Source: a bacterium (GTDB lineage: Bacteria > UBA10199 > 2-02-FULL-44-16 > JAAZCA01). Taken from it: a stretch of DNA of 64,000 nucleotides. This document shows positions 1,592 to 27,180 of this stretch, in pieces. A model generated the notes under the pieces. It worked only from the letters and a program-made list of their open reading frames with translations. It did no database searches and was not told where the DNA came from. The DNA is taken from NCBI GenBank assembly GCA_963674695.2, contig CAXXGI010000003.1:256001-320000 (forward strand), given 5' to 3'. The first letter of the stretch is position 1, and each line of letters starts with the position of its first letter. The translations under genes and the position numbers were made by a program.

Positions 1592-3112
1592 TCAAAGCGC
1601 ATCGATCGTCGGCCGAAATTGAAGGGCTTCAGCCAGATGTTCGACGGCGATCTCGTCGGCTTGGGCCAGATCCGCGATCGTGCGCGCGACCTTGAGCACG
1701 CGGTGGAGGGCACGCCCGGAGAGGACATGCGCCTCGGCGGCCTTTCGCAAAAAACGATGTTCCTCCGTTCCGAGGCGGCAGTGGTGGCGCACGTTGCGTC
1801 CGGTGAGTCCGGCGTTGGTCGCTCCCTCCTGACGGTAGCGCTGCGCCTGGCGATCGCGCGCCATGAGCACGCGTTCGCGGACATCGCGCGAGCGCTCTTC
1901 GGTGCCGGTATCGAGCAACGCTTCATGCGGCGGAGGGCCGACCTCGATGTGCAGGTCGATGCGGTCCATGAGGGGTCCCGAGAGCTTGGTCTGATAGCGA
2001 CGGATCTGCGGGACGGTGCAGCTGCACGCCCGTGCCGGATGCGTGAGAAACCCACAGGGGCAGTTGTTCCACGCTGCGGCCAGGAGAAACCGTGCGGGAT
2101 AGTGGATCGAGACGCCCGCGCGCACGATGTGCACGCGACCCGATTCCATCGGCTGGCGCAGGACTTCGAGCACGTCCTTGCGGAACTCGGCCATCTCGTC
2201 GAGGAAGAGGACGCCTCGGTGCGCGAGCGAGATCTCTCCCAGACGCGCCGCGCCTCCCACGCCACCGCCGACCAGCCCCGCATAGGAGGCCGAATGATGT
2301 GGCGCCCGAAAGGGGCGGTGATGCGGCAGTTCCTGTCCGCGCAGCAGTCCGTGCCAGCTCTGGATCATGGCGACCTCGATCGCCTCGGCTTCCGTCAGTG
2401 GCGGCAGGATCGTCGAGAGTCGTTCGGCGAGCATCGTCTTCCCCGTCCCCGGCGGTCCGCGGAAGGCGACGTTGTGACCACCGGCCGCGGCGATGGTAAG
2501 CCCGCGTTTCGCAAACGGTTGCCCGCGCACATCGGCGAGATCGCCGACATCTCTCTGTGCATCGAGCGGCGGCGGCACGGGCGGCATCGGCGGGACGATG
2601 TCGTCGGCCAGAAACTGCACCGCGTCGGCAAGCGTGCGCACGGGCACGACCTGAATGTCGCCGGCCAGCTGCGCCTCCCAGGCGTTTTCCGCCGGGACGA
2701 TGACGCCGGAGAGATTGCGATCGAGGGCCGACTTGGCCAGCATCAGCACGCCGCTCACCGGAAGCACGTCGCCGGTGAGCGAGAGCTCCCCGGCGATGAG
2801 GTGACATCGGCTGCGCGATGGTTTGCACGCGCCGACGGCCGTGAGCAGCGCCACCGCGATGGGGAGATCGTAGTGCGCGCCCGCCTTTTTCAGATCCGCC
2901 GGCGAGAGGTTGATGAGCGTCTTGCGGTTGGGCAGCCCGAAACCGGCGTTGCGGATGGCGCTCTCCACGCGTTCACGCGCCTCCTTCACGGCAGTCTCCA
3001 GAAGCCCCACCATGTTCCAGCCGGGCAGCCCCTGCATCTGGACGTCGACCTCGACGGTGACGGGGAGGGCCTCTATGCCAGCCAGCGCAGCTGCATGAAC
3101 GTATGCGTGCAT
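1592..3112 (-). CDS. comM: ComM/YifB Mg-chelatase-like AAA+ ATPase
   Basis: INLSPADLKKAGAHYDLPIA, GPPGTGKTMLA, PFRAPHHSAS, GEISLAHRGVLFLDE, LSGPLMDRID and RVLKVARTIADL. Start placed at MHAYVH (3112). Confidence 0.93.
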   Translation of the reverse strand: MHAYVHAAALAGIEALPVTVEVDVQMQGLPGWNMVGLLETAVKEARERVESAIRNAGFGLPNRKTLINLSPADLKKAGAHYDLPIAVALLTAVGACKPSRSRCHLIAGELSLTGDVLPVSGVLMLAKSALDRNLSGVIVPAENAWEAQLAGDIQVVPVRTLADAVQFLADDIVPPMPPVPPPLDAQRDVGDLADVRGQPFAKRGLTIAAAGGHNVAFRGPPGTGKTMLAERLSTILPPLTEAEAIEVAMIQSWHGLLRGQELPHHRPFRAPHHSASYAGLVGGGVGGAARLGEISLAHRGVLFLDEMAEFRKDVLEVLRQPMESGRVHIVRAGVSIHYPARFLLAAAWNNCPCGFLTHPARACSCTVPQIRRYQTKLSGPLMDRIDLHIEVGPPPHEALLDTGTEERSRDVRERVLMARDRQAQRYRQEGATNAGLTGRNVRHHCRLGTEEHRFLRKAAEAHVLSGRALHRVLKVARTIADLAQADEIAVEHLAEALQFRPTIDAL

Positions 3113-3125
3113 GCCGTCCCTCATT

Positions 3126-3217
3126 GCACCGGTTGTGCCAATGACGAGGGTCGATGATTCAAGGGGTTAGATGAAATCCACTGCCGCCATTTGCAGCAGC
3201 TGCATCAAATGGCGGCA
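3126..3217 (-). promoter_or_regulatory. sigma54-type promoter + IHF-like site + 36-bp palindrome upstream of comM
   Basis: Minus strand TGGCAC-AACCG-GTGC (3140-3126). ATTCAAGGGGTTA at 3157-3169 resembles IHF WATCAANNNNTTR. Palindrome TGCCGCCATTTG-N12-CAAATGGCGGCA at 3182-3217. Confidence 0.75.
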
Positions 3218-3301
3218 CCTGAACGGGCTCGGCGCCCATCCTTGACCTTTTGCGGGGAATCGGCCAAGTTGCCCGGACTCATTCTGTTTTTTGGAGGGGG
3301 C

Positions 3302-4243
3302 ATGGCACATGATATCGTCATCATTGGGACGGGCGCGGCGGGACTCACGGCCGCCATCTATGCGGCGCGGGCCAACATGGAACCCCTGCTCATCGAGGGG
3401 ATGCAGCCGGGCGGGCAGCTCACGATCACGACCGACATCGAGAACTTTCCCGGCTTTGCCGACCCGATCGGCGGACCGGATCTGATGCTGGCCATGCGTG
3501 CGCAGGCCGAGCGTGTCGGCGCGAAGGTGAAGAGCGGCGCGGTCACCAGTGTGGATCTCTCAAAACGGCCGTTCGTCATCGAGGTCGGAGATGAGAAAAT
3601 AGAAGCGCGCGCGCTCATCGTTGCCACCGGTGCCGAGGCACGCTGGCTTGGAATCGAGTCGGAGCACACGCTCATGGGCAAGGGCGTTTCGGCCTGTGCG
3701 ACCTGCGATGGGTTCTTCTTCCGCGGCAAAGAGATCGTCGTCGTCGGCGGGGGCGATACGGCGCTCGAAGAGGCGACCTACCTCACGCATTTTGCGACGA
3801 AGGTGACGATCATCCATCGGCGCGATGAACTGCGCGGATCGAAGGCGATGCAGGAGCGTGCCTTCAAAAACGACAAGATTGCATTCGCCTGGTCGAGCGT
3901 CATCGACGAGATCCTGGATGTGGAAAAGGGGGAGGTGACCGGCGTGCGCCTCAAGGACACCAAGACCGGCGCGCTTCGCGAGCTTCCCTGCCAGGGAGTC
4001 TTCATCGCCATCGGGCACAAGCCGAACACGGACGTCTTCAAAGGGCAGCTCGAGATGAACGCCGAGGGCTATATCGTCACGCCAAAGACGAGCATGCGCA
4101 CCTCGGTCGAAGGCGTCTATGCCGCCGGCGATTGCCAGGACCACGTCTATCGGCAGGCGATCACCGCCGCCGGCACTGGCTGCATGGCGGCCATCGATGC
4201 CGAGCGGTGGTTGCAAGAGCAGACCATAGACCAGAGACCATAG
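3302..4243 (+). CDS. trxB: thioredoxin-disulfide reductase
   Basis: GTGAAGLTAAIY, GVSACATCDG, VVGGGDTALEEA and YRQAITAAGTGC motifs. GGAGG upstream of ATG 3302. Confidence 0.97.
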   Translation: MAHDIVIIGTGAAGLTAAIYAARANMEPLLIEGMQPGGQLTITTDIENFPGFADPIGGPDLMLAMRAQAERVGAKVKSGAVTSVDLSKRPFVIEVGDEKIEARALIVATGAEARWLGIESEHTLMGKGVSACATCDGFFFRGKEIVVVGGGDTALEEATYLTHFATKVTIIHRRDELRGSKAMQERAFKNDKIAFAWSSVIDEILDVEKGEVTGVRLKDTKTGALRELPCQGVFIAIGHKPNTDVFKGQLEMNAEGYIVTPKTSMRTSVEGVYAAGDCQDHVYRQAITAAGTGCMAAIDAERWLQEQTIDQRP

Positions 4244-4255
4244 ACCATGGACCAG
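4221..4255 (+). repeat. heptamer array (AGACCAT/AGACCAG)x5 overlapping trxB stop
   Basis: AGACCAT AGACCAG AGACCAT AGACCAT GGACCAG. Confidence 0.75.
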
Positions 4256-4260
4256 AGGGT

Positions 4261-4353
4261 GTCATTCCCGCGCAGGCGGGAATCTCGACTTTCACGATTC
4301 ATCGAGATCCCCGCTGGAGTTTATCCTGAGCGGAGTCGAAGGGCGGGGATGAC
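4261..4353. repeat. REP-like doublet (GTCATTCCCGCGCAGGCGGGAATC family) with nested insert
   Basis: GTCATTCCCGCGCAGGCGGGAATCTCGA ... TCGAGATCCCCGC[TGGAGTTTATCCTGAGCGGAGTCGAAGG]GCGGGGATGAC. Confidence 0.85.
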
Positions 4354-4400
4354 AAACTCAATCAGATTCGGGCATGACAGAGTATAAGACAGTTTTCTAG

Positions 4401-5489
4401 ATGCGCCACATTGTTGAAAGGCTCTTCTTGAAAAGACTCCTCACGATCATCGTCATCTTCAGCACCTTCGCATCCGGTACGGTGTTCGCACGCGAGTATG
4501 ATGCGTTTGGTCCCATCTCATTGCGGACACAGAATCCCGTCTACCTGCAGTCGTTGGGGCTCACCCCTACGCGCGCCGAGGTCGTTCCCGAGGGGACCTT
4601 TGAGCTGCGCCTCGATTCGGCCTATTCCAATATCTTCGAGCGGGAGCGGAACGCGAATGCCTTTCTCGACCTGGATATGGAACTGTTGCGCATGTCGCTG
4701 CACACCATGTATGGCCTGACCGATGATTTCGAGATCGGCATCGAGATTCCCTTGATGCATTTCAACGGTGGGTTTCTCGACAGCTTCATTCAATCCTATC
4801 ACAAGTTTTTCGGGTTTCCCAACGGCGGGCGCGATCAGGTTCCCAACAATCAATTCGATTATTTTCTGAACCAGGGCGGCCGTCAGCGTTTTCGGTATCC
4901 GTCCGCGGATTTGGGGTTGGGCGATATCGTCTTGCATGTGAAACATCAGCTCACCGGGCAGGATAGCGATTGGCCCGCGCTCTCCATCTTTGCCGAGTTC
5001 AAATTTCCGACCGGGCGGCGTTGTCGGGGTTTTGGCAGCGGCGCGTTCGACTTTGGCTTCGGCACGGCGTTGGAGGCGAGCTACAAGCGCATTCACGGCC
5101 ACTTCAACGCAGCCTATTATGTGTTGGGGGGGAACGCCTACTACGAAGACCTGATGCGCAGCGAGATGTTCTCCTACATGATCGCCGGCGAGGTGTCGCT
5201 TTTGCCCAACTGGTCGGTCATCGTTCAGCTCAACGGCTCGACGCCGCTCCTGCAGGGGACGGGACTCGATCAATGGGACGGCGTGCCGCTCGACCTCGTC
5301 ATCGGCTTTCGCGGTGAAGAGCGCAATCTCATCAACAATACGGATCTCATCTGGCAGTTCGGCTTCTCCGAGGACGTGACCAGCCGCGGACCATCCGTGG
5401 ACTTCACCGTCTTCTTCTCCATCGGCCTGCGCTTCGACGCCTTCGGCCGCACCCGCCCCGTCGGCGATTGGCTGGCCTTAAAACCGTGA
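4401..5489 (+). CDS. DUF3187-like outer-membrane beta-barrel protein
   Basis: Signal-peptide-like N-terminus; 'GGFLDSFIQSYHKFFGFPNGGR' and 'GLGDI...KFPTG...GFGSGAFDFG'. The exact start may be TTG 4428. Confidence 0.75.
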   Translation: MRHIVERLFLKRLLTIIVIFSTFASGTVFAREYDAFGPISLRTQNPVYLQSLGLTPTRAEVVPEGTFELRLDSAYSNIFERERNANAFLDLDMELLRMSLHTMYGLTDDFEIGIEIPLMHFNGGFLDSFIQSYHKFFGFPNGGRDQVPNNQFDYFLNQGGRQRFRYPSADLGLGDIVLHVKHQLTGQDSDWPALSIFAEFKFPTGRRCRGFGSGAFDFGFGTALEASYKRIHGHFNAAYYVLGGNAYYEDLMRSEMFSYMIAGEVSLLPNWSVIVQLNGSTPLLQGTGLDQWDGVPLDLVIGFRGEERNLINNTDLIWQFGFSEDVTSRGPSVDFTVFFSIGLRFDAFGRTRPVGDWLALKP

Positions 5490-5597
5490 ACGGTGAACGG
5501 TGAACGGTGAACGGTGAACGGTGAACGGTGAACGAAAAAACCCCCAAGTATATCACCTTGGGGGTTTTCTGTTCACCGTTTACGGTTCACCGTTCAC
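5486..5597. repeat. (GTGAACG)x7 array, central terminator hairpin, then 4 reverse-complement units
   Basis: 5486-5534 perfect units; 5570-5597 TGTTCAC CGTTTAC GGTTCAC CGTTCAC. Confidence 0.95.
5535..5570. terminator. bidirectional intrinsic terminator between convergent genes
   Basis: AAAAAACCCCCAAG-tatatcac-CTTGGGGGTTTTCT. Confidence 0.8.
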
Positions 5598-5602
5598 GGA
5601 TT

Positions 5603-6040
5603 TTAGAAGGGTACATCGTCCGGGCCGGTGTCGCCGAAGTCCGGCGTGGTGTTGCTCGCTGGGGTCGGGGCGTTTGTGCCATAGCTTTCACCCGTGCTCT
5701 TGGCGCCGGTGGGGGAACCCAAAAATTGCACGCGCTGGGCGACGACTTCTGTCGTGTAGCGTTTGTTGCCGTCCTTATCGTCCCATTGCCGCGTCTGCAG
5801 GCGACCCTCGACATAGACCGGGCGACCCTTCGAGAGGTACTGCGCACAGCTCTCCGCTTGAGCGCCCCAGACGACGACGCGATGCCACTCCGTGCGTTCC
5901 TGCGGTTCGTTGGCACTGTTGCGCCAGCGCTCGCTCGTAGCGATGTTGAAGTTGGTGACCGTCTGTCCCGTTCCGGTGACACGCTTTTCCGGATCTTTGC
6001 CGAGGTTGCCGATGAGGATGACCTTGTTGACGCTTGCCAT
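5603..6040 (-). CDS. ssb: single-stranded DNA-binding protein
   Basis: [38 protein letters not shown] and C-terminal DDVPF. Confidence 0.97.
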
Positions 6041-6085
6041 ATATGCTCCTTTTCCGATGGGTGACGGGATCAATGCAGCCGACGT

Positions 6086-9796: not shown

Positions 9797-9823
9797 GCAA
9801 CTTTCCTTCCATTTTGCCGATAG
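9797..9823 (+). promoter_or_regulatory. sigma28-like promoter
   Basis: GCAACTTT-N11-GCCGATAG versus FliA consensus TAAAGTTT-N11-GCCGATAA; the -10 box starts 49 nt before ATG 9865. Confidence 0.55.
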
Positions 9824-9864
9824 TTTATGCCAGGAGACGTGTATCCAAAAGAAGAGGTCTGGGT

Positions 9865-12800
9865 ATGGTCGATGAAATCAAAGGGGGCGGTTCGCCCAAG
9901 GCGCGTCCTTCGCTTCCGAATCAGACGGCGGATATGAATGCCGCTTCACCCGATGCGGCATCGAGTGCACCGGTCGACGCCTTCCAGGATCGGCGCGAAT
10001 CAGGCGCTGTCCTCAATGCCACGCTTCCCGCCTTCGGCGGTCACTGGGCCTTTGCCGTCGATGCCGAGGAGCCCAAAGAGGCTGGGGAGTCCACGCGCAA
10101 CGAAGCGATCATGCGCCTTTTCCCGCAGATCGATGAGCTCGCGGAGATCGATCGCCGCGGGATTCAGAGCCGTGACGATGTGGAGCACGCCATCGACCTG
10201 ATCTTCGAGATCAGAGATGCGATCCGAGAGCAGTCGGCGAAGGATTTTGAAGCGATGATGAAACGGCGCGGTGCCTGGTCGGTGGCGATCGCGGTGCTGG
10301 CCGAGCTCTTCTCGGCCTATCGCAAACACGACATCCCGTTCCATGTCGTCGAGCCGACTGATGAAGGGGGCGTGGCCTTCGTGGCGCGGACCGCTCGCGA
10401 ACAGCGCGGGCGCATGATGCTTCCGGCCACGACCTATGGGATTACGCTGTCCGAGGGGGAGAGCCTTTCCACCGCCTTTCACGAGATTACCCACGCCGTT
10501 CCCGGCAATGATGTCCTCGTGGCCCTCGATGGATGGATCGCATGGATGGGCGATGAGCGGTTGACTTCGCGGCTCGCCTTTCCGGCGTCTCCGGAGGAGG
10601 GGGACTCGTTCGGAGCGATCTTCGCCAAACTCGCCGGTCAGCGCTTTCGCGACGAGGCCTATTCGGGGATCACCGAAGCGCATCTCTCCGCCGTCCTACG
10701 GGTGGCCGGTGCCGGTGGGCAGCATCTTGCGCGCGGACATCTCGAGACATTGGAAGGAGAGGGAGGCCTCGTTCGATACCTGGGCGACGGAGGGTATCTG
10801 GGCGACAATCACCTGTTGCAATACACCACCGCCGAACTGCTCTCTCTGGCCGAGCGCGTGCAGGACGAACCGGAGCTGCTTGAAAAGGAGATCTCCAAGA
10901 CGATGCCGCCGCGACTTGCGCGCCACGACCGGGATTTCGATCCGCGCATGTGGCAAAAACGTTTCGGTGTCGTCATGGGCGAGTTCTTCGATTTCCTGAA
11001 GCAGCTCGATGCGGATGAGCGATCTAGCCATCCGCTCAAACCGTTTGCGACGCGCGTGATGCCGTTCATGGGACTCGCTGCCGCCATCAACCCGCGCGAA
11101 CTGGTGCGGGAAAAGATCGACCCGACGCACCCCTTCGCGGGGTTGGCCAAACAGATCCTTCCCCATCTGCCGACGCGTCTTCCGATCAATGCTCGCGGCG
11201 AGATTCAAGATGTGGCGCCGCTCGAAGTGGGCGATCGGCCTTTCGTCCGCCCGGGCGCGGACGGCGATCTTCTCACCCGCAATCCGGAGGCCGCGCGCGA
11301 GGCGTATGCTGTTCTCGATCACTTCGCCGAGTCGACGCTCCCGGTCCTTCCGCATGCGATCAGCCAGAAAGAGACCGAGGTGCTCGGGGCGGCGGCACTG
11401 CTCCTGCCGGATGAGGATGTGGTTCCGTTCTGGGGTCGCGTGCTCGCGCAGGAGGCGATCGAGCGCACGCGGGCGCAGGTCTCCGACAACGCCGATATGA
11501 ATTCCTGGTTCGGTCCGATCCTGCTGTCGCTCGTGGCGCAGGGCTATCTGGATGAGGCGCGAGCGGTCCTGCCCAACGCGCGGGCCGACACGTTTGCAGC
11601 TGAACAGTGGGGACGAACGCTCTTTACAGGTTTGCACACGCTCTCCCGCCACGGCGATGCGCGCGCGATCGATTTCTGGATCGATATCATCCGTTCAGAG
11701 ACTGACGAACGATGGATGCATCGAGCGAAAGCGGATCTCCTTCAGATTGTCCGATCGAACGGCCTGCTCGAGCCGGAGGGGTTGAGAATACTGAAGGCAC
11801 ATCTCGACGACTCCGAGACCATGCCGCGCACCGCACGCGATGGCTCTGACCTCGTCTTCGACCTGGTCGAAGAGGGACTCTATCTGCCGGAGTACTATCC
11901 GGCGAAGCTGGAGGAACTCGACGGCGAGGTGGAGGATAGCTACGACTTTGCCCATGCCTGGGAAGGGTCGTTCACCCTGTCGGGGGCACTGGAGTCGGGG
12001 CGAAAGGAATTGCCGGGCTCTGAACAACTCACGCTCATGGCGCGCTCAATGCAAGCACTTCGCGATCGAGGGTTTGCCGAGGCGGCCGAACGCGTCGAGG
12101 AGATCGGTCGTCGTATGCTCTCGGATTTTGTGCACGAGCGCATCGGTTCCATTCGCGAACGCATCGAACACGAGTATGAGAAACGCAACAAGCCGATGCG
12201 GCGCAGCGATTCCTTTCTGACCCACATGGAGAAACTCGACGTCAGCGAAACGCAAGTCCTGGGATACGGCAGCGCATTGGCAGCGGACCTGGCGGCGATC
12301 GTTGAGCTGCCGGAGGCGATGGACGGCGGGTGGACCGCCGCCCTCGATCTCCTCGAGAAGATCCCAGACGGTGCGGTCAAGGTCGCGGCGATGGAGCGGT
12401 GGGCCTCGGAATCGCATCATGTCAGCGCCCCCACCGATGCACAGCGCCTGCGCCTGATCGGGATCTGGCGGCAGACGCTCGAGGTGATTTCAGAGCGGAT
12501 CATTCCGCGGCGTCTGATCCAGCCGGCCCCGGAAGGGGTCGCCATGGATACGGGCCTTGAATCCTGGATCAACGGCATGTCTGCCGGTCGTTCTCCCCTG
12601 GGGGGTGCGCGAAGCTATGGCGCGCGCATTGCCTTTGTGCAGCGCCAGTTCGGCGCGATGCTCGCCTTTCTCCCCGCGCGAGGGTCGAATGAAGTGCAAC
12701 GCGTGCGCCGCGAGATCGTTGCGCAGTTGGAGGGCGAGACGGTTCGGAGTTCGTTTCTTGCGCCGCGCATCCTGCCGCCAAAATATGACTCCGGGCGCGA

Positions 12801-15800
12801 TGTCGAGGATATCGTCCTCGCGCGACAGGGCGATGCGGAAGAAGTTGTGACCACACGACGCGTGCGGACCAAACAGGTCTATGAACTCTATCACGATCCG
12901 AACCGCATTCCGGTGCGCATTATGATCGAGGAGATCGAGCGCGAGCCGACAATAGAGGGGATCGATCGCGTTCGCGAGCGGATCGATGCGGTGCTGGATC
13001 GATTGGCGCCGGAGCTCGCCGTGCCCTATGTCGAATATCTGCTGCGCCTGTCGGTTGCGGCCCGCGCAAGTGATGCCGAACGCTCGGCATCGCTCTATGA
13101 ACGGGCGCACGAGTTGGGCGAGGCCTTGCGCGAGATCCCCGAAGCCCGATGGTCGAAGCGCTATGCCTACAGCTATCTGGAAGAGCATCAGCGCGACTAC
13201 GACCAGGAGGTGCGCGCGCGCATTCATCAGGCGGCCTGGGAGCGCGGGGCGCTCATGAGCCTGGCGCGCCTGGCCGTTTCAGGGAACGTGCAGGAGAGCG
13301 CGCACTATCAGGAGGAGATCGGCCGGATCGTTCAGAACGAGTCGATCTTCGACGTCATGGAGAGCGCAGACTATACGCAGGCCGCGCGCGTCCTGGACGA
13401 GGGGGGGCTGGCCGGTCCGCTCGTCTTCGACCTCTTCGACCAGGCCATCCAGACCCGCGCGCGCGAACAGTTCGAGGCGGCCTATGCGGTCGATCACGAC
13501 CTGGCCACGATCATCGATGCCTCACACCTGGATACCGCTTCACGCGACCAGCTCCTTGAACGCTTGATCGACATGACCTTCGTGCGCGCCTTTCGTTCCT
13601 CCCTGCAGGGGATCGTGGCGTCGCAGAAGCGCGACGAATACCTGGAGCAGGCCGAGCGCCTCTTCGCCCCGATGGATGCCCTGCTCGATCTTGCCCAACA
13701 GCGCGGCTATCCGGGAATGGAGCGCGCGCTCTGGAGGGGATTGCGCCGCGTGACCGAAGGGCTGCTCGACCGCCTGCCGACAGCCCTGCACGCCTTTGCA
13801 CTGGCGCGTCCCGCGCGCTTTGTGCTGGGTCGGCACCCGGAGCTGGTGCACCCGGCCAGTCGCGGTGCGGTGGCCGAGATGGAGCATCTCTTCGATGCGA
13901 CGTTTTCCGACAGCGAACAGCGTGTCTATGAGAACCTCCCCAGCGCCTGGGAGATGCGCGAGGCCTTCTCGTCGTACGAGACGTCGGATGGTGACGAAGA
14001 AGCGCTGTTGCAGCGCATCGTTCACCATCTGGATCCGGATCCGGCTAACGTCGATCCGATGCTCATCGATCTCCTGCAGGTTGCCTTCATCTCCCATGCC
14101 CACCTCATCGATGCGGATGACCCGTTTGAAACGTTTTCCAATCTCGAGGGGCATTCGGTGATAACACCCCTTCTCGAACACTACGGATATGCAGACTCGG
14201 ATCTGAAGCGCTTTGTGCGCGAGCAGCCGGAGATATTCAGCCGTCTGCTGCTCCAGAAACACACGCGCCACAGCGCCCAGCTCTATTTCGGCGCCATGCG
14301 CGATCTGTTGGCGATGCGCGGTGTTCCCCTCGAGGTGCGCGCCGATGCCTTCCGGGTGATCGTGCGTTCGGGTTTTGTCTCGACCTATGTCCAGCAGCAG
14401 TTTGCGCGGGCGCAGCGCTCCAAACAAAAGCTCGCCAGCTTCCTGTATCGCGTCCGGTCGATCTGGAGCGACAAGCCCACCAAGGAGGATCCCTTCCGGC
14501 GGCAGCCGCTTCCGGATTTCGTCATCGCGCCGCAGTTCGATGCGATGCTCGCGCCCGAACGCCCGTTGGCCGACGAGGCCAAGAAGAGCGGCATGGTCGT
14601 CGACGAGGAGTTCTCCGAGCTCCTCATCCGTGATCCCAGTCCGTATCAGGTCCTGGCCACCATCTGGAATGAGCCGGGCGAGATCCCGATACGGCGTTTC
14701 GCGTCCGATCCGGACCCGCGCTATTTCTATCAACGCATCGAAGATGGCGCGATGATGGTCTATGGGATGGTCGAGTCCGGGGTCATCGCGGATGAGGGAG
14801 AAGAAGAGGACGACTTTGATCTGTTTGACCCGGAACGGATGCAGCGCGAGACACAGCTCGAAGCGTGGCAGGAGCAGGAGCGTCTGACGAGGATCGATGA
14901 TGAGGAGCTGGAGGAGGTCGAGCGTGCAGTCGATGCGGAGAATGCGATTCAGGAGATGACGGAACAGGAACGTGCGGTTCGGCTGCGCGTCAGTTCCGAA
15001 GTGGGCCATATCTTCCGGCGCAATTCGCTCCTGGTGCGCACGGGGTCGATCACAATGCCCGACGCCTTCGATCGGGTCGATCCGCGACTGCGCCTGGCCC
15101 TGGGCGGCTATATGACATTAGTTCCCGCCTCAACCCGCATGCTGCTCCTCGGCGCGCTCTCGCAGACGCAGGAGCGCATGGGCGAGCGCGAGGTGCTCCA
15201 TCGCTTCTTCGAGATGACGGGGCTGGAGAAACTCGCACAGTTCTTGAGCGTGCAGAAGGACGTCGTGCCCGAGCGCTATCGCAAGACCCTGGCGCGCTTT
15301 CAGCAGGACCTCAAACCCAGCACGCAGCAGGAGATATTGGATACGCTGCGCATCAGCGGAATTGATCTGGAGACGAATTTTGCGTCCGAATCGACGCTTC
15401 AGTTCGAGCATGCGGGAACTGTGGGCGAGCTCTGGCAGGGCGTGCATCGCGACGGCCGCAAGGTTGCCGTGAAGATTCTGCCCTGGAAGAAGCGGCGCCG
15501 CAACGAGGAGTCGTTGCGTGCGCTGAAGCGACTCGCCGGTGAGCTGCACCTGTTCCGGCACGACCACTTCGGCGGCGTGGACTTCAACGATCTCTACGCG
15601 CGCTATCGCGATTCGCTGCTCGCCGAGATGGACTATCGCGGCGAGATGGAGAACCTCCATACGTTGCGCCCGGGGCTTATGCGCCACGGCATCGCCTTTC
15701 CGAACGTGCATGAGGACCTGCTGCGCCGCGACGCGATGGTGATGGATTATGAGGACGCCATCGATGTCGAGGCGATTCCCGATGTGGCCGATCGCGAGCG

Positions 15801-16587
15801 CCTCGTCCAGACGACCGCACGATGGTTGGCGCGTTCGATCTTTGAAGACGGTGTCTTCTACGAAGACTTCCATCCCGGCAACGTCAAGTGGCGTCCGGGA
15901 AAGGCAGGCGAGCCCGGCCGTCCGCTCGTGCTCGACTATGGACGCATCGGCCGACTGGAAGCGGGGGAGCGTGACGCGCTCGTGGATCTCATCGCCGCCT
16001 TCGGGCAGAACGATCGCCCTGCGGTCCTGCGATCGCTCGTACGGATGAGCACGGCGGATCAGAAACCGTCGCAGGTCAACGCCCTCTCCGACGAGATCGA
16101 TCGGATCTTCGATGAAGCCGAGGGGGGTGCCTCCTCGAAGATGGTCCAACAGTTCTTCGGCGCGGCCGCCAAACATGGTCTTCCGCTGCGTCCGAACTAT
16201 CTGCAGTTTCTGAAGGCCGTCGTCTCCTGGGAGGGGATGATGGACCGCGTGGACGGGACGGCCTCGACGCATCTGCAGTGGAATATCCTGGAAATCCTCG
16301 TGGAGAAGGCGAGCGGTTCCTCGAATGGCGGAGCGGCGCCGGCCAGCGACAGCGGCCCAGTTGCGCCTTCAGAGAATCCGCCGCCGACGGACACAGGACC
16401 GCAGACGGCACCGCTGGTGGTTGAGAATGACACGTCGATGCTCGGCGCCGACCTCATGCCCATCGATCCCCTCATGGCCCAACCGGGCATGGAGATGATG
16501 AACCTCGGCGCAGATGTCTTCATGGATCCAATGATGGCGATGCCGACGATGGCCATGGGCAGCGCCGCCATGGGCGCGGTGTTGTGA
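9865..16587 (+). CDS. giant protein with N-terminal HExxH motif and C-terminal ABC1/AarF/UbiB atypical kinase domain
   Basis: ~2240-aa ORF; AFHEITH; kinase motifs EKLAQFLS, GTVGELWQG, VAVKIL, EMDYRGEMEN, EDFHPGNV and LDYGRIG. Confidence 0.85.
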   Translation: MVDEIKGGGSPKARPSLPNQTADMNAASPDAASSAPVDAFQDRRESGAVLNATLPAFGGHWAFAVDAEEPKEAGESTRNEAIMRLFPQIDELAEIDRRGIQSRDDVEHAIDLIFEIRDAIREQSAKDFEAMMKRRGAWSVAIAVLAELFSAYRKHDIPFHVVEPTDEGGVAFVARTAREQRGRMMLPATTYGITLSEGESLSTAFHEITHAVPGNDVLVALDGWIAWMGDERLTSRLAFPASPEEGDSFGAIFAKLAGQRFRDEAYSGITEAHLSAVLRVAGAGGQHLARGHLETLEGEGGLVRYLGDGGYLGDNHLLQYTTAELLSLAERVQDEPELLEKEISKTMPPRLARHDRDFDPRMWQKRFGVVMGEFFDFLKQLDADERSSHPLKPFATRVMPFMGLAAAINPRELVREKIDPTHPFAGLAKQILPHLPTRLPINARGEIQDVAPLEVGDRPFVRPGADGDLLTRNPEAAREAYAVLDHFAESTLPVLPHAISQKETEVLGAAALLLPDEDVVPFWGRVLAQEAIERTRAQVSDNADMNSWFGPILLSLVAQGYLDEARAVLPNARADTFAAEQWGRTLFTGLHTLSRHGDARAIDFWIDIIRSETDERWMHRAKADLLQIVRSNGLLEPEGLRILKAHLDDSETMPRTARDGSDLVFDLVEEGLYLPEYYPAKLEELDGEVEDSYDFAHAWEGSFTLSGALESGRKELPGSEQLTLMARSMQALRDRGFAEAAERVEEIGRRMLSDFVHERIGSIRERIEHEYEKRNKPMRRSDSFLTHMEKLDVSETQVLGYGSALAADLAAIVELPEAMDGGWTAALDLLEKIPDGAVKVAAMERWASESHHVSAPTDAQRLRLIGIWRQTLEVISERIIPRRLIQPAPEGVAMDTGLESWINGMSAGRSPLGGARSYGARIAFVQRQFGAMLAFLPARGSNEVQRVRREIVAQLEGETVRSSFLAPRILPPKYDSGRDVEDIVLARQGDAEEVVTTRRVRTKQVYELYHDPNRIPVRIMIEEIEREPTIEGIDRVRERIDAVLDRLAPELAVPYVEYLLRLSVAARASDAERSASLYERAHELGEALREIPEARWSKRYAYSYLEEHQRDYDQEVRARIHQAAWERGALMSLARLAVSGNVQESAHYQEEIGRIVQNESIFDVMESADYTQAARVLDEGGLAGPLVFDLFDQAIQTRAREQFEAAYAVDHDLATIIDASHLDTASRDQLLERLIDMTFVRAFRSSLQGIVASQKRDEYLEQAERLFAPMDALLDLAQQRGYPGMERALWRGLRRVTEGLLDRLPTALHAFALARPARFVLGRHPELVHPASRGAVAEMEHLFDATFSDSEQRVYENLPSAWEMREAFSSYETSDGDEEALLQRIVHHLDPDPANVDPMLIDLLQVAFISHAHLIDADDPFETFSNLEGHSVITPLLEHYGYADSDLKRFVREQPEIFSRLLLQKHTRHSAQLYFGAMRDLLAMRGVPLEVRADAFRVIVRSGFVSTYVQQQFARAQRSKQKLASFLYRVRSIWSDKPTKEDPFRRQPLPDFVIAPQFDAMLAPERPLADEAKKSGMVVDEEFSELLIRDPSPYQVLATIWNEPGEIPIRRFASDPDPRYFYQRIEDGAMMVYGMVESGVIADEGEEEDDFDLFDPERMQRETQLEAWQEQERLTRIDDEELEEVERAVDAENAIQEMTEQERAVRLRVSSEVGHIFRRNSLLVRTGSITMPDAFDRVDPRLRLALGGYMTLVPASTRMLLLGALSQTQERMGEREVLHRFFEMTGLEKLAQFLSVQKDVVPERYRKTLARFQQDLKPSTQQEILDTLRISGIDLETNFASESTLQFEHAGTVGELWQGVHRDGRKVAVKILPWKKRRRNEESLRALKRLAGELHLFRHDHFGGVDFNDLYARYRDSLLAEMDYRGEMENLHTLRPGLMRHGIAFPNVHEDLLRRDAMVMDYEDAIDVEAIPDVADRERLVQTTARWLARSIFEDGVFYEDFHPGNVKWRPGKAGEPGRPLVLDYGRIGRLEAGERDALVDLIAAFGQNDRPAVLRSLVRMSTADQKPSQVNALSDEIDRIFDEAEGGASSKMVQQFFGAAAKHGLPLRPNYLQFLKAVVSWEGMMDRVDGTASTHLQWNILEILVEKASGSSNGGAAPASDSGPVAPSENPPPTDTGPQTAPLVVENDTSMLGADLMPIDPLMAQPGMEMMNLGADVFMDPMMAMPTMAMGSAAMGAVL

Positions 16588-22440: not shown

Positions 22441-23061
22441 ATGAATAACGACAAATCCCGTTTCATGGTCGCATTCGAAGATTTCAAAATCCGTCGCGTT
22501 TATGATGAGCCGTCGGAGACCTGGTTCTTTTCGGTGGTCGACATCATCCAGGCGCTCATTCAACAACCGGACTACCAGGCAGCGCGAAATTACTGGAAAG
22601 TCCTTAAAAATCGACTCAAGACAGAGGGGAGTGAAGTGGTTACACATTGTAACCGGTTGAAAATGTTGGCTCAAGACGGCAAGTTACGCCAGACCGACGC
22701 CGCTGATCCTGAAACCCTCCTCCGGCTCATCCAATCCGTCCCCAGTCCCAAGGCTGAACCCATCAAGCTCTGGCTTGCCAAGGTGGGGTATGAACGCATG
22801 CAGGAGATGGCCGATCCCTCTCGTTCTCTCGATCGTGCTCGCGAGACCTGGAAGAAGTATGGTCGCAGTACAAAATGGATTCAGCAGCGCATGATGGGTC
22901 AGGAGACCCGCAATAAATTGACCGATTACTGGAGCGTGCACGACATCAAAGAGGGGGAGGAGTATGCCATTCTCACCAACATCATCCACCAGGAATGGGC
23001 CGGCGTTTCGGTGAAAGAGCAACAAAAGTGTAAAGGGCCTCAAGACGCAAAATCTTCGTGA
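22441..23061 (+). pseudogene. BRO-N-domain (antirepressor-like) gene, frameshifted and apparently truncated
   Basis: IRRVYDE..WFFSVVDII, RNYWKVLKNRL and LRLIQSVPSPKAEPIKLWLA. After ...SVKE the family-like sequence KSVKGLKTQNLRDHMS continues in another frame (extra base near 23021). Confidence 0.7.
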
Positions 23062-23296
23062 CCACATGTCTGCAAAAAAAGCGTCAGACGAAGCAGAATT
23101 GGAAGTGCGAGGGGGCGAGGGGCTCAATGTGTCTCATAATAAGCTCGGTGCGGAGATGGGGTGTTTGTTCTGCTCGATTGTGACTCGATTTGAGGCACGA
23201 ATGCGCTGGTCGTTTGCGTGATATCGAAACGGGGGTGTGCTCCACGCACACCCCTGCCTTGGTTTGAAACAACTATGATGAGAAATGCGATTTTGT

Positions 23297-24022
23297 TTAT
23301 TCTGAGGTGACAGCGAGCGGAGTGTCAGGCGGCGGTCCCGTGATGCGCGAGGCCATATGGTTGGTTACCCTGCGTCCCATACGCTGACAGAGCTCTCGAT
23401 ACTGGGCCAATACCCAATCCGGATCGCCGATGAAGGGCGTGTTCGAGATGTTCATCCGTTTGCGCTGAAACATCATCGCCTCGACGATGCCCCGATATTC
23501 GCATTGTCGTTCAATCGGTGTCCGGCCCAAGGCGAGATACGATGGTGACGGTGTGAGCAGCCGATCGGGCCTGCCGTATGCATAATACTGATATGATGAC
23601 CACTCGTTCTTCTTTGGATGCGGGACTTTTCCCGCCCGATGGGGGTTGAGATCGACATAGGCCATGGCCTTGAGCATGTGCTCGTCTGACTCGATGCGAG
23701 GGGATTTGAAGCGATCCATGACCACCTGTCCGCGCCGACCCAGGCGCTTGTTGACCTTTCGGGCAAACTGGCTGTGGACGGTCTGAAAGAGGCGGGAGAA
23801 CTGCTCTCGATCGCTCAGCGTTCCGATCAGATGCGGATGGTTGTCCATGAAGCTGTAGGCGTGGAAGATGACGCCATACTTGTCCTTATACTTCACCAAG
23901 AGGTCATAGTAGATCCGCTTGGCCCAATCCCACTTCAGGAGCCAGTCCTTGTTGTGACACTGCCACGTCACGTGGAAGGAAACACCGTCATACACGATTT
24001 CGCGTCGGGGGAGGTAGGCCAT
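23297..24022 (-). CDS. HUH Y1 tyrosine transposase/nuclease (RAYT / IS200-like)
   Basis: FHVTWQCHN, HUH-like motif MDNHPHL, DRFKS, catalytic-Tyr region YVDLNPHRAG and WSSY. Confidence 0.88.
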   Translation of the reverse strand: MAYLPRREIVYDGVSFHVTWQCHNKDWLLKWDWAKRIYYDLLVKYKDKYGVIFHAYSFMDNHPHLIGTLSDREQFSRLFQTVHSQFARKVNKRLGRRGQVVMDRFKSPRIESDEHMLKAMAYVDLNPHRAGKVPHPKKNEWSSYQYYAYGRPDRLLTPSPSYLALGRTPIERQCEYRGIVEAMMFQRKRMNISNTPFIGDPDWVLAQYRELCQRMGRRVTNHMASRITGPPPDTPLAVTSE

Positions 24023-24035
24023 GCCCCTTCCCAAA

Positions 24036-24127
24036 GCAAGCGGCGTGCCAGGAACGGACCACGGAAAAACAGATACTTAGGTGAGGACTGCCGCCGCCAT
24101 TTGCAGCAGCTGCAGCAAATGGCGGCA
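24036..24127 (-). promoter_or_regulatory. sigma54 promoter + IHF-like site + 36-bp palindrome upstream of HUH nuclease
   Basis: Minus strand TGGCACGCCGCTTGC (24050-24036); AAACAGATACTTA at 24067-24079; palindrome at 24092-24127 (34/36 identical to the comM copy). Confidence 0.8.
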
Positions 24128-24296
24128 CTGCTTCGTCTGACGTGTCCCAACTGATATTTCAAAAAAGCGGCCGGATATCGGTTTGATATTACAGGCCAAT
24201 TTCTAAATGGCGAACTTGGGCACCGTGTTGCGCAACATGAAACTGTCACCTGCCGATAACAACAGAGAGAACACAGGACATCTCCGGAGGTTGGAT

Positions 24297-25298
24297 ATGA
24301 AGACAACGCGCACGAAGATAACGATTCTGGCAACGATTCTGCTGCTCGCTCTCACCGCCTGTTCCGGCATGGCCGGGAGTGGTGGCAACGATCCCGAGAA
24401 CTGTGTGGGCGATGCGTGCGACATCAATCTGAATGAGGGTTGCACAATCGGTGAGATCGATCCGGACGACCCGCTCTGTTTCTGCCTCGAAGGGCGCGAT
24501 GGCAACGGCGCCTGGGATTGTACCGATCCCGAATCCGTCGACGTTGACGGCGACGCCGACGGCGATGGAGTCGCCGACGATGAGGATAACTGTCTCGCTT
24601 TTGCCAACCCGGATCAGAAGGATATCGATTTAGACGGCGTGGGTGACCTCTGTGATGTCTGCCCCGCGGGCAGGTACGACAACGACGACTTTGAACCGAT
24701 CATGAACGAAAGCGGATATCCGAACGTGAGTGCGGTTCAAGGCAGGTTCGCTGATGATGGATCGTTCACGACCAACCTGGCAGCTTATGTGAGCCCCAAC
24801 GCCGTTGACTCCTCGATGGAGACCTCTATTGAACTGACACCGGTTTTAAGACGCGTCGATGGCCGTTTCACCCCCGTTGGAAATGATGTGAAATTATACT
24901 TCTCTGCACCGATCGGCCATACATTCCGCGACCGGTTGCGCGAAGTATTCGCCGCACAAGCTCTTTCAGTCGGCACAAACAAATCAACACCGGTCGAACC
25001 GAACGCACCCACAATGGCAACGCCGGTTCTCCTTCTCGTCGAAGATGTCTATGTCTATGCGAAGCGAAGCTCTGTTGATGGGCATTACACGTATAGTCTC
25101 CACATGACCGCCCCCAGCACCGACTCCGTCACCATCATCACCGACGGCTGTGCGGAACTCAAAAACCGCTGTGTCCCTGGTGCGCGGTTTTCGCTGAGTG
25201 ATTCCAACAACTACGGCTCAGGACTTGCTTGCCACTGTGAGGCCGATGGAACGGGCGACGGTCAATGGGAGTGTAGCATGGCAATCCCTGAGTTCTAG
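24297..25298 (+). CDS. Cys-rich lipoprotein with thrombospondin type-3-like Ca-binding repeat
   Basis: Lipobox 'ALTAC'; DADGDGVADDEDNC...NPDQKDIDLDGVGDLCD; repeated CxC...G.GxWxC module at both ends. Confidence 0.8.
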   Translation: MKTTRTKITILATILLLALTACSGMAGSGGNDPENCVGDACDINLNEGCTIGEIDPDDPLCFCLEGRDGNGAWDCTDPESVDVDGDADGDGVADDEDNCLAFANPDQKDIDLDGVGDLCDVCPAGRYDNDDFEPIMNESGYPNVSAVQGRFADDGSFTTNLAAYVSPNAVDSSMETSIELTPVLRRVDGRFTPVGNDVKLYFSAPIGHTFRDRLREVFAAQALSVGTNKSTPVEPNAPTMATPVLLLVEDVYVYAKRSSVDGHYTYSLHMTAPSTDSVTIITDGCAELKNRCVPGARFSLSDSNNYGSGLACHCEADGTGDGQWECSMAIPEF

Positions 25299-25365
25299 TG
25301 CCCCGAAAGATACCCTCCCGGACGAGGGCTCACGATCACGCGACGAGTTCGACTCGTGGTGCATG

Positions 25366-26340
25366 TCATGATCCGACATCGACCCGATACCGTCCGTCCG
25401 GTTCCACCTCGATGATGATGTCTCCGTTGGCGATGATCGGTTCCTCGCGCGCCGTGAACCCGGCCTCGGTCTGATAGACCACGATCCCCGCCTCGACGAG
25501 TCGATCGACGACGTCCTCGTGCGGATGATTGAAGTCGTTGTCGTCGCCCACGGAGATGATGGCGACCTCCGGGGTGGTGGCATCGAGAAAGGCCGCGTTC
25601 GTGCTCGTGCGGCTGCCGTGATGGGCGACGCGCAGGATGTCGATGTCTCCGACAAGATTGCCGAGCGGTGTCTCGACATCCGGCGTTTCATGCGGCGGGT
25701 TCCCGCCGCCGCCGGTGATGTCGCCGCCGAGGAACATGCGGAAGGCGCCGTATTCGATTACGAGCGCGATGCTCGCGGCGTTCTCATCGATGGGATCGCC
25801 GAGGTCGATGACTTCTCCATCGCTGAGGATGCCACTCGATGCCACCACCGATAGGTGAGCACCCCCAAGACGCAGCTCGTCGCCGGCAGCAAGGGTTCGT
25901 CGCAGACCATCTGTTGCAGCTTCGTACGCCGGATAGAGCGCGCCTTCGCTTCCCTCTGGTTCACCTCGATCATAGATCCCTCCAACGGTGATGCGATCGT
26001 CGGCGACGATCTCGATGAGGCCGCCGATGTGGTCGCTGTGGTAGTGCGTGGCGATGATGCCGGTGAGCTGGGTGATGCCCTGTGTGGCGAGATACGGGGC
26101 GATGACGCCTGCGCCCATGCCCGGATCCCCGCCATCGATGAGGAGCACCTCGCCCGTCGGTGCGACGACGAGCGTGGCGTCCCCCTGACCGACGTCGAGG
26201 CAGGCGATGCGAAGAGGGCCTTCGTTGTTTGCGGTCTCATCGGCGACGGGCGTGCGGGAGGAAGCGAAGCGATCGAGTCCGGGGGGACTCCCGCAGCCGC
26301 AGAGCGCGCAACAGATGATGATAATGCCGAGGCGTCTCAT
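25366..26340 (-). CDS. ComEC/Rec2-like metallo-beta-lactamase-fold hydrolase, probable lipoprotein
   Basis: LDVGQGDA, LIDGG, THYHSDHIGG, ENAASI, LGGD, VAHHGS, AIISVG..N.FNHPH; N-terminal lipobox-like 'ALCGCG'; no ComEC membrane domain. Confidence 0.9.
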   Translation of the reverse strand: MRRLGIIIICCALCGCGSPPGLDRFASSRTPVADETANNEGPLRIACLDVGQGDATLVVAPTGEVLLIDGGDPGMGAGVIAPYLATQGITQLTGIIATHYHSDHIGGLIEIVADDRITVGGIYDRGEPEGSEGALYPAYEAATDGLRRTLAAGDELRLGGAHLSVVASSGILSDGEVIDLGDPIDENAASIALVIEYGAFRMFLGGDITGGGGNPPHETPDVETPLGNLVGDIDILRVAHHGSRTSTNAAFLDATTPEVAIISVGDDNDFNHPHEDVVDRLVEAGIVVYQTEAGFTAREEPIIANGDIIIEVEPDGRYRVDVGS

Positions 26341-26353
26341 GCGGTGAGAGAAA

Positions 26354-26500
26354 GCAATCGACGTGCCAGTTTGAGCCCTTCAGGAAACAGGGGGTTAGGC
26401 TATGCAGCTGCCGCCATTTGCAGCAGCTGCATCAAATGGCGGCAGTGCGGTTTGCGTAAGTGCTTGAATTGCAGGGGGCGCCTTTTGGCACGCGGCTTGC
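26354..26500. promoter_or_regulatory. divergent pair of sigma54 promoters, each with an IHF-like site, sharing one 36-bp palindrome
   Basis: Minus TGGCACGTCGATTGC (26368-26354); plus TGGCACGCGGCTTGC (26486-26500); IHF-like AAACAGGGGGTTA (26385-26397) and TAAGTGCTTGAAT (26457-26469); palindrome at 26409-26444 identical to the comM copy. Confidence 0.85.
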
Positions 26501-26514
26501 TCTCTGCAGAGCGC

Positions 26515-27180
26515 ATGTATCCCGGTGCCATCATTCTGCTCATCGCAGCACTCTCCCTCGGAGGCGATGCCGATCTCCGCGACGGGGCGCCTCCGGTCGT
26601 GCTGGTGCAGCAACAGGCCATCGCGCACGCGCGTCTGGAGCCGCAGGAGATCTCCACCTGGCGGAAGCGCGCGCGCATGGCGGCCTATCTGCCCAAACTG
26701 CAGGTCGAGTATCAGCGCCGCGTTCGCGACTTCGTCAACGTCGACGTCAACTCGAACGTCTACGTCGGTTCCAACGGCGTGACGGTCGGTCCCGACGACA
26801 ACGCCTATACCCAGGACTATCACTGCGACAACAACATCGGCGTGAAGGCGATCTGGTCGCTCGGCGATGTGGTCTTCAATCAGAACATGCTGCGCGTCTC
26901 AACGGAGGCGCGGCACCTGGCCCGCCAGCGCCAGTCGCTCTTGGCCGAGGTCAACGAGAACTACTACGGTCGAAAACGGTTGGTCGGCGAGATCGTTCTG
27001 TTGCGAGAAGAGCTGCAGCGCGCGCCGCGATCGAATGCGGTGCGCCGCGAGCTCTTCCTCAAACAGGTGGCCTGTCGCGAAGCGGGGGCGGCGCTCGATG
27101 CGCTGACCGGCGGGTGGTTCTCCACACAGATGAAGCCGTCCGAACGGGGCGCGTCGGTTGCATCAAACGGATGCGACTAA
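26515..27180 (+). CDS. exported hypothetical protein (weakly TolC/outer-membrane-efflux-like helices)
   Basis: Hydrophobic N-terminus MYPGAIILLIAALSLGG; 'RARMAAYLPKLQVEY', 'GVKAIWSL', 'LLAEVNENYY' and 'LDALTGGWF'. Confidence 0.65.
   Translation: MYPGAIILLIAALSLGGDADLRDGAPPVVLVQQQAIAHARLEPQEISTWRKRARMAAYLPKLQVEYQRRVRDFVNVDVNSNVYVGSNGVTVGPDDNAYTQDYHCDNNIGVKAIWSLGDVVFNQNMLRVSTEARHLARQRQSLLAEVNENYYGRKRLVGEIVLLREELQRAPRSNAVRRELFLKQVACREAGAALDALTGGWFSTQMKPSERGASVASNGCD

Follow-up and report, generated by a model that had tools for sequence, protein, structure and literature searches.

The window analyzed here is a stretch of 64,000 nucleotides (nt), positions 256001-320000 of contig C3 in a genome (G000) of 3.03 Mb, 58.6% G+C and three contigs (C1 to C3). 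Four genes within it share what lies upstream of their start codons: a 36-bp palindrome (hereafter the dyad), a box resembling the binding site of IHF and a sigma-54-type promoter, together called here the cassette. The genes are comM (also yifB; 506 aa; 1592..3112, minus strand), a Y1/HUH gene resembling those of the REP-associated tyrosine transposases (RAYTs; REP, repetitive extragenic palindrome) and called here HUH1 (241 aa; 23297..24022, minus strand), a gene for an MBL-fold lipoprotein that resembles the C-terminal domain of ComEC (324 aa; 25366..26340, minus strand) and, divergent from the last, a gene for an exported protein (221 aa; 26515..27180, plus strand). I propose that the cassettes belong to one sigma-54 regulon, probably served by a single activator.

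Copies of the dyad lie upstream of comM (3182..3217), upstream of HUH1 (24092..24127) and between the MBL-lipoprotein and exported-protein genes (26409..26444), whose two promoters have it in common. The first and third copies have no mismatch and the second has two; across 100 shuffles of the window, the chance control used for each motif, there were no matches at all. The dyad parses as two inverted 17-mers separated by 2 bp (17+2+17: TGCCGC-N5-GCAGCA, 2 bp, TGCWKC-N5-GCGGCA), and the half nearer the promoter is the better conserved. A 17-mer of the form TGC-N-GCA has the size and shape of NtrC-type sites.

The promoter element, TGGCAC-N5-KTGC, occurs four times in the window, with its T at 3140(-), 24050(-), 26368(-) and 26486(+). 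The motif search gave TGGCACAACCGGTGC for comM (3126..3140, minus strand); the others are TGGCACGCCGCTTGC for HUH1 (24036..24050, minus strand) and, on either side of the common dyad, TGGCACGTCGATTGC for the MBL lipoprotein (26354..26368, minus strand) and TGGCACGCGGCTTGC for the exported protein (26486..26500, plus strand). Shuffled windows contained 0.24 on average, and none of 100 reached four. From the end of the dyad to the promoter T there are 41-42 nt, as read and as aligned, and from the T to the ATG 28, 28, 28 and 29 nt. Between dyad and promoter stands a box of the form YAA-N4-YTG-WWW that starts 29 nt before the T and stops exactly 16 nt short of it, in all four cassettes of the window (TAACCCCTTGAAT at comM, 3157..3169, minus strand; TAAGTATCTGTTT at HUH1, 24067..24079, minus strand; TAACCCCCTGTTT on the MBL side, 26385..26397, minus strand; TAAGTGCTTGAAT on the exported-protein side, 26457..26469, plus strand) and in all nine of the genome. 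Few of the nine fit the strict IHF consensus WATCAA-N4-TTR (complement YAA-N4-TTGATW); the relaxed form fits every one, at a single fixed position. Sequence between the motifs is unrelated among the aligned cassettes. All this bears out an earlier account of the same DNA, the sequence-only reading, which had described the palindrome at its three places, the four promoter elements with fixed distances to dyad and ATG, and unconserved sequence between; it had put an IHF-like box at a fixed 30 bp, in substance the same position. Motif and spacing thus support the reading of the window elements as promoters of the sigma-54 type, each preceded by a dyad and an IHF-like box.

A profile made from the cassettes and scanned over the genome with nhmmer found eight that are full-length (E 3.9e-25 to 2.6e-19). 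Beyond the four of the window, they stand before an M23 peptidase gene (T at C1:55292, minus strand), a gene for a 2087-aa RHS protein (T at C1:544413, minus strand) and two HUH paralogues (T at C1:749673, plus strand, and at C3:474539, minus strand). A ninth, weaker copy at C2:685210 precedes a gene for a 118-aa protein that has no family match and whose N-terminus is, by my own reading, TadE-like. A composite search pattern, in which a site hexamer is followed after 38-43 nt by a -24/-12 element and after another 12-15 nt by an ATG, matched the genome seven times and, when reversed, not once; a dyad scan with 6 mismatches permitted was noisy. The arrangement thus reaches beyond the window, with one geometry at eight promoters of the genome and a weaker ninth copy.

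The exact dyad pattern was found in none of 40 relatives. The site has diverged, and for that reason the comparison was anchored on orthologues. It covered 22 genomes of the order, from four families (f1 to f4) and 18 genera, compared as stretches around the loci, and a locus was counted where the T of a -24/-12 element was followed at 24-33 nt by a start codon in frame. Of 20 comM loci, 18 have such an element, the start lying at 28-31 nt; in the two exceptions, both from one genus (g7), the promoter lies 64 nt upstream and there is a Shine-Dalgarno sequence. HUH genes follow the element in 26 of 29 loci (start at 28-32 nt). Orthologues of the exported protein were found in 19 of the 22 genomes, and the element was seen at 17 of these 19 loci on a first pass and at all 19 once the region was widened (start at 24-33 nt). 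In 14 of 18 loci of relatives, the MBL gene is divergent from that of the exported protein and the gene for a lipoprotein with a weak match to the lamin-tail domain (LTD) lies downstream; in family f2 the MBL gene was not found beside the exported-protein gene. In other orders of the class, 6 of 15 comM loci pass the script, with the start at 28-29 nt. Two more were recognized by eye, at 28 nt and with a TTGA variant of the -12 element; others have the element further upstream, and one lacks it. At two loci from other orders of the class (L259, L260), arrays of TACGCAC-like repeats take the place of the dyad 5' of comM, which suggests a different DNA-binding specificity before the same promoter-to-ATG geometry.

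The site changes from genome to genome in a consistent manner. It is TGCCGC-N5-GCAGCA in this genome, TGCAGC-N5-GCWGCA in several genera of f1 and TGGAGC-N5-GCTCCA in f4. In one relative (G014) it is CGGAC-N7-GTCCG, at comM, the exported-protein gene and the HUH gene alike. Longest common substrings among 64-nt upstream-site regions averaged 8.8 nt for different genes of the same genome (n=94, G000 left out), as against 7.1 for different genes of different genomes (n=2100) and 7.5 for the same gene in different genomes (n=714). Mann-Whitney tests give p = 3e-10 and 7e-6, values that are indicative only and overstated, as the pairs are not independent. A site that differs among genomes yet is alike within each is as expected if one regulator co-evolves with all its sites. 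The proposal that the motifs form a regulon thus holds up well: judged from the kept cassettes, the regulon is real, conserved over the order, and built on an unusually rigid promoter grammar.

Might the palindromes instead be repeats of the REP or terminal-inverted-repeat (TIR) kind, spread by HUH transposases, with their position before promoters a by-product of insertion preference? The thought arises from the HUH genes themselves. Three of the eight dyad copies are inside the HUH units and directly beside a terminal repeat. The unit of HUH1 occupies 23083..24141 (minus strand). Its ends are 14-bp inverted repeats, GTCAGACGAAGCAG, one at 23083-23096 and one at 24128-24141, and the second of these abuts the dyad. 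All three HUH units are flanked by such TIRs, there being about nine copies of the terminal repeat genome-wide, and all three keep a GC-rich hairpin 3' of the stop codon (in HUH1 GGGGTGTGC-N5-GCACACCCC, 23232..23254, minus strand). Similarity among the three loci is confined to the stretch between the dyad and a point shortly beyond the stop codon. The protein of HUH1 matches the REP-associated tyrosine transposase model NF047646 with 55.7 bits. Nevertheless, the real ends of the unit are the 14-bp repeat and not the dyad, and no such repeat lies alongside the dyads at comM, the MBL/exported-protein pair or the M23 gene. The genome holds only about nine dyad copies, and orthologous host genes across 18 genera have the site at the same place with respect to the -24 element, in genome-specific sequence. 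Dispersal of the palindromes by transposases is therefore a very improbable account of them.

The units are best described as TIRtrons, defined in the available text of Di Nocera et al. (2013, PMC3733652) as RAYT-like Y1 transposase genes (TIRYT) flanked by TIRs. Assignment of HUH1 to the RAYTs proper was tried and given up, its score being below the NF047646 cut-off of 80 and its flanks being 14-bp TIRs rather than REP hairpins. What it does have is a Y1_Tnp fold (PF01797, 25.3 bits against a cut-off of 23), the NHPH and YVDLNP motifs that supply the HUH and tyrosine residues, and the flanking TIRs, features by which the HUH genes count as TIRYTs. The sequence-only reading had called it an HUH nuclease; the HUH motifs are there, but they belong to a TIR-bounded, RAYT-like transposase unit. 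Protein-cluster searches brought only 'hypothetical' and Y1_Tnp clusters, whose few members on record belong most often to Myxococcota, a hint at taxonomy and no more. As in the TIRtrons of the available text of PMC3733652, a RAYT-like gene sits in a unit of roughly 1 kb with TIRs instead of REPs. The difference is that the units here carry the enhancer, IHF-like box and sigma-54 promoter of a host regulon: the TIRtron promoter uses the same enhancer as the host genes, in the version specific to each genome. HUH proteins are 65-72% identical across families, compared, within one family, with 61-68% for ComM and 48-54% for the candidate activator (below), a degree of identity that could reflect constraint or mobility. 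A lone terminal repeat, GTCAGACGAAGCA, occurs in the window at 36604-36616 with no HUH gene seen beside it. A degenerate dyad at C1:702282-702315, GCCGCCAATCGCTGCAGACGCAGCAAACGTCGGC, is separated by 12 nt from a TIR copy; it lacks a recognizable sigma-54 promoter and may be the remnant of a TIRtron end.

The near-constant distance from promoter to ATG has a consequence. The -24/-12 rule sets GG at -24 and GC at -12, which puts the promoter T at -26. An ATG 28-29 nt after that T has its A at about +3 or +4, so the transcripts would be leaderless or nearly so, and the conserved spacing leads me to infer as much for the regulon as a whole. The sequence-only reading had passed over this implication of its fixed spacing. 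The start codons are credible: signal or lipoprotein peptides begin at the ATG in three of the proteins (MBL, exported and M23), the YifB model aligns with ComM from residue 5, and the HUH orthologues align from residue 1. Two strong sigma-54-type promoters that lack a dyad (C1:32622 and C2:423546) also have an ATG at 29 nt, while others have ordinary leaders. Full-text searches listed no paper that describes this regulon or leaderless sigma-54 mRNAs. The available text of a myxobacterial paper (PMC12754779) proposes that a sigma-A promoter, next to a sigma-54 target, gives a leaderless mRNA; the available text of PMC3616915 does not link leaderless mRNAs with sigma-54.

The genome has the machinery that such promoters demand. 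There is one rpoN (C3:673270; Sigma54_DBD, E 2.0e-63), so that the sequence-only reading does not fail for want of the sigma factor, and about ten strong enhancer-binding proteins stand ready: the sigma-54 interaction domain (PF00158) has 14 matches, 10 of them at E < 1e-60. HU/IHF-family genes number six, and one of these is at the window's end (63714-63983). Hanks-type kinases number eight, one of which (C1:546828-547610) is encoded just upstream of the RHS cassette. Two long frames, C1:766119-770435 (1931 aa) and C2:447605-452005 (1702 aa), each contain a Hanks-type kinase plus a sigma-54 interaction domain and would be kinase/enhancer-binding-protein fusions.

Which protein reads the dyad? 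The activator had been left nameless and placed outside the window, and it is indeed elsewhere that a candidate appears, beside another copy of the dyad. The gene at C1:55420-57054 has its start 52 nt away from a copy of the dyad (C1:55333-55368) and is divergent from the M23 gene. Its 545-aa product has two FHA domains, a sigma-54 interaction domain (PF00158, E 2.3e-67) and a helix-turn-helix (HTH_8, E 7.4e-12), and GAFTGA and the Walker A motif GESGTGKE can be read in it. With AAA+ domain, GAFTGA and Fis-type HTH, it has, to judge from its sequence, what defines an NtrC-family enhancer-binding protein. Proteins of this kind are usually encoded beside their own enhancer, and this FHA-FHA-AAA+-HTH protein is, from its adjacency, most likely the activator of the dyad. 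Orthologues over the full length (45-54% identity) were recovered from 11 of the family's 12 other genomes and from three of the four in f2; the rest of the order gives best matches that are weaker or partial. At 10 of 12 orthologue loci, all in f1, the same gene is divergent from the activator gene on the opposite strand, recognized by a C-A-D-[LV]-R-I-D/A-E stretch and, for G003, by an M23 match. It stands behind a -24/-12 element with its ATG 27-30 nt on, and a dyad-like TGCAGC-N5-GCTGCA lies between the two genes. A search over genome contigs returned at least 80 loci, mainly the generic AAA+ domain from unrelated phyla and uninformative for orthology, and family searches on the neighbors of the activator gene gave nothing informative. 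In most orthologue loci (L019-L030) the activator gene itself is behind TTGAC-N17-TAnnnn, with the ATG about 7 nt on. Its mRNA too may be leaderless, and a dyad beside the -35 element could allow autoregulation.

It is conceivable that the dyad is a real enhancer bound by some other activator, for example one of the three tandem enhancer-binding proteins at C3:184-188 kb, and that the FHA-FHA protein adjoins one copy only because its M23 neighbor is a target. The genome offers about ten strong candidates, and paralogous families of sites do exist, as the 38-bp class described next makes plain. In some genomes of f4 and f3 the best matches to the candidate are only partial or lack FHA, yet comM keeps its cassette; in f2 the activator orthologues have no divergent cassette. 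What speaks for the FHA-FHA protein, besides the general rule of adjacency, is that the divergent arrangement with dyad-like sites has been kept in 10 of 12 orthologue loci, in 9 genera. I regard a different activator as doubtful, though deserving of attention.

The 38-bp enhancers (e.g., TGCCTCCATTTGCAGCACCGCTGCTGCGTATTTCGGCA) form a second, related class outside the window, at C3:835277-835312, C3:836.1 kb, C3:157.5 kb and C1:26923-26958. They precede sigma-54 promoters of the type TGGCACGCTCC(G/T)TGC at other spacings, and a 15-mer of the class, TGGCACGCTCCTTGC, has six genomic occurrences. Behind them are genes for a HicA-like toxin, for an ORF6N protein, for a protein of 120 aa and for a distant paralogue of the HUH genes (29% identity). 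A variant of the dyad itself, with 8 mismatches (C1:113658-113693), precedes genes for a RelE/HigB-like toxin and an XRE antitoxin. That pair has a sigma-70-like promoter and lies downstream of a sigma-54 promoter reading through the dyad. In another relative (G010, locus L033) a double site is found beside a HicA-like toxin gene.

Turning to the targets, comM is secure, as had been claimed: its product matches TIGR00368 over its full length (540.8 bits against a cut-off of 362.4), the YifB model aligning from residue 5. An ORF6N-domain gene (527..1588, minus strand) follows after 3 nt and, outside the window, genes for AddB-like (PD-(D/E)XK) and then AddA-like (UvrD plus nuclease) proteins; in one relative (G007) a cassette directly drives an ORF6N gene. 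The MBL protein is a stand-alone lipoprotein. It resembles the C-terminal nuclease part of ComEC, matching TIGR00361 only at positions 442-660 (E 1.8e-30), but with 105.7 bits it is under the cut-off of 190 and shows no match to the channel domain that ComEC/Rec2 proteins combine with an MBL domain. The true ComEC, complete at 803 aa and with its own MBL domain, is encoded at C3:130512-132920.

The exported protein has no Pfam or NCBIfam match. A model predicted from 19 orthologues (pLDDT 77) shows a pair of long strands together with long helical hairpins. Foldseek gave weak matches (E 2e-3 and worse, TMq 0.22-0.42), among which TolC/OprM-type chains make up the top 14 and 29 of the first 30 listed. 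VIA-align placed TolC-type chains on the model with Z 6.2-6.6 over 130-188 residues (root-mean-square deviation 4.7-8.8 A), and they are among the few matches that cover most of it. A wide VIA-align search produced generic helical hairpins (Z <= 7.6) and no TolC chain among the top 50. The half-TolC-like topology of the predicted model is accordingly a lead only. Downstream lie the genes for the lipoprotein (27193..28290, plus strand), which has a Big_5 domain and a weak lamin-tail match (PF00932, 20.7 bits, below the cut-off of 34.3), and for a protein of 217 aa that contains an HEIGH motif and matches no family (28290..28943, plus strand). Inside the span of the cassettes is also an open reading frame of 2257 aa (9814-16587, plus strand). 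The M23 protein behind the cassette at C1:55292 matches models of peptidoglycan endopeptidases.

One more operon is drawn in by half a site. The gene recA is the last of pgpA-cinA-thpR-recA, with gaps of -4, -4 and +24 nt. Preceding the operon are a promoter of the TGGCAC type, TGGCACGCCTCCTGC, with a short leader, and a 17-mer one mismatch from the site, which ends 41 nt before the promoter T. Across the order, 10 of 22 pgpA loci pass the script and five more (L227, L232, L235, L237, L238) were accepted by eye, these with longer leaders. The genes at which one would look first in a competence regulon are different. The dprA gene is behind an HU-like gene and has a Shine-Dalgarno sequence, and comEC lies inside an operon; in this genome neither has a cassette. 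The sequence-only reading had offered a competence or DNA-scavenging program, and had suggested looking for the palindrome before uptake genes. What survives is the theme of DNA processing, strengthened by the half-site and sigma-54 promoter at the recA operon; with comEC and dprA outside and the M23 peptidase and RHS protein inside, competence is only one possible reading. The theme is rather DNA recombination and processing together with the envelope than a classical uptake regulon, and an inducible recombination/processing program coupled to envelope remodeling is the best reading of the role. Among the papers that full-text searches listed, sigma-54 is tied to competence only via pilus genes, e.g., in Ralstonia.

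The same facts permit a different purpose for the same regulon: envelope stress, antagonism between bacteria or a response to DNA damage, in which the M23, RHS and outer-membrane proteins would be effectors, and comM and recA would serve repair. This fits the presence of the peptidase and the 2087-aa RHS protein among the targets and the absence of comEC and dprA. It fits as well the cinA-recA and AddAB-like genes, which are repair genes, and the dyad-like sites beside toxin-antitoxin genes. Less comfortable for it is that RHS is known as a target from this genome, the one genome examined for RHS, and that the conserved core consists of comM, the TIRYT gene, the MBL/exported-protein/LTD module and M23. 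There is also a LexA-like protein, so that a separate SOS system is likely. The genome had been thought devoid of LexA, as PF01726 found nothing, but the idea was dropped in view of the 204-aa frame at C1:302471-303085, with its winged-helix N-terminus and S24 peptidase, which the Pfam LexA_DNA_bind model misses. A purpose other than the acquisition of DNA seems to me possible but on the unlikely side.

I propose, then, that the dyad serves as the upstream activating sequence of one sigma-54 regulon, a pair of inverted NtrC-type sites on which a sigma-54 enhancer-binding protein, the FHA-FHA protein at C1:55420-57054, would oligomerize. An HU/IHF-family protein would bend the DNA at the fixed box, centered about 23 nt upstream of the -24 element, and the activator would then open the complex of RpoN holoenzyme at TGGCAC-N5-TTGC. 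Transcription would start so as to place the ATG at about +3 or +4, leaderless or nearly so. Activity would be gated by a phospho-signal from Ser/Thr kinases, sensed through the FHA domains. The regulon would comprise comM (possibly with the ORF6N and addB/addA-like genes), the three TIRYT units, the divergent pair of MBL and exported-protein/LTD-lipoprotein/HExxH genes, the M23 peptidase gene divergent from the activator, the RHS gene and, by its half-site, pgpA-cinA-thpR-recA.

Several observations weigh against this proposal. The activator was assigned by adjacency, about nine other enhancer-binding proteins being present, and it remains a candidate; the f2 activator loci L028 and L030 have no divergent M23 cassette. 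Its recognition helix could not be matched to the half-site, there being too little variation, and such differences as the helix shows did not clearly track the site. Paralogous activators could cross-recognize similar sites, given the 38-bp class. The -24 element is weaker in two of the nine cassettes (TGGCTT at RHS, TGGAAC at M23), and several promoters of relatives count only with 3 mismatches allowed. The comM genes of genus g7, with their Shine-Dalgarno sequences, mean that leaderlessness is not obligatory. To these must be added the overstated tests of co-variation and the missing cassettes of comEC and dprA. Even so, an enhancer, an FHA-FHA activator, leaderless targets and a recombination/envelope program seem to me, taken together, rather probable.

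One may go further and imagine a phospho-signal-gated sigma-54 program for taking in and recombining foreign DNA. The exported protein would form a half-TolC-like hexameric channel in the envelope, with the LTD lipoprotein and the ComEC-type MBL nuclease, while ComM, CinA and RecA would integrate what enters. The TIRYT would be a recruited processor of single-stranded DNA, and the M23 peptidase and RHS toxin would free the DNA of neighbors. With all the mRNAs leaderless, initiation alone would set the response. I put this forward as speculation that is, as a whole, quite unlikely to be right.

If the narrower proposal is true, then a poorly known class of bacteria has a conserved sigma-54 wiring diagram, with one activator, one enhancer grammar and defined targets, that links the recombination functions of recA and comM with envelope proteins of no known function. 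A regulatory context would also be gained for the exported protein of 221 aa and for the LTD and MBL proteins encoded next to it. An ATG fixed at about +3 or +4 suggests that sigma-54 promoters can routinely yield leaderless mRNAs, which bears on how these are translated. And a TIRtron that carries the enhancer of its host and co-evolves with it would be a concrete case for the domestication of an HUH transposase or its control by the host.

Regulons of competence that include comM and cinA-recA are those of CRP-S/Sxy in Haemophilus, ComX in Streptococcus and TfoX/QstR in Vibrio. They resemble the present one in that comM and cinA-recA are induced together with lytic or killing functions (murein hydrolase, toxin). 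They differ in that the regulator here would be sigma-54 with an enhancer-binding protein, and in that comEC and dprA have no site. FHA-domain enhancer-binding proteins of Myxococcus xanthus were reportedly described by Jelsbak, Givskov and Kaiser in 2005. Those too join FHA, sigma-54 AAA+ and HTH domains, presumably as read-outs of Ser/Thr kinases, of which this genome has its eight of Hanks type; the candidate here has two FHA domains, in a lineage with genomes of 1-4.6 Mb, and a different, conserved set of targets.

The closest precedents for the promoters are the NtrC/NifA-type sigma-54 promoters with looping assisted by IHF, such as glnAp2, nifH and Pu. Those at hand share with them the GG at -24 and GC at -12, 17-bp TGC-N-GCA dyads in tandem, an intervening IHF-like box and a putative GAFTGA AAA+ activator with a Fis-type HTH. 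What sets the cassettes apart is an enhancer only 41 nt from the -24 element and a spacing that is invariant as far as the start codon, with an implied leader of 0-3 nt. In the candidate activator two FHA domains replace the receiver or GAF domain, and the targets are genes of recombination, transposition and the envelope.

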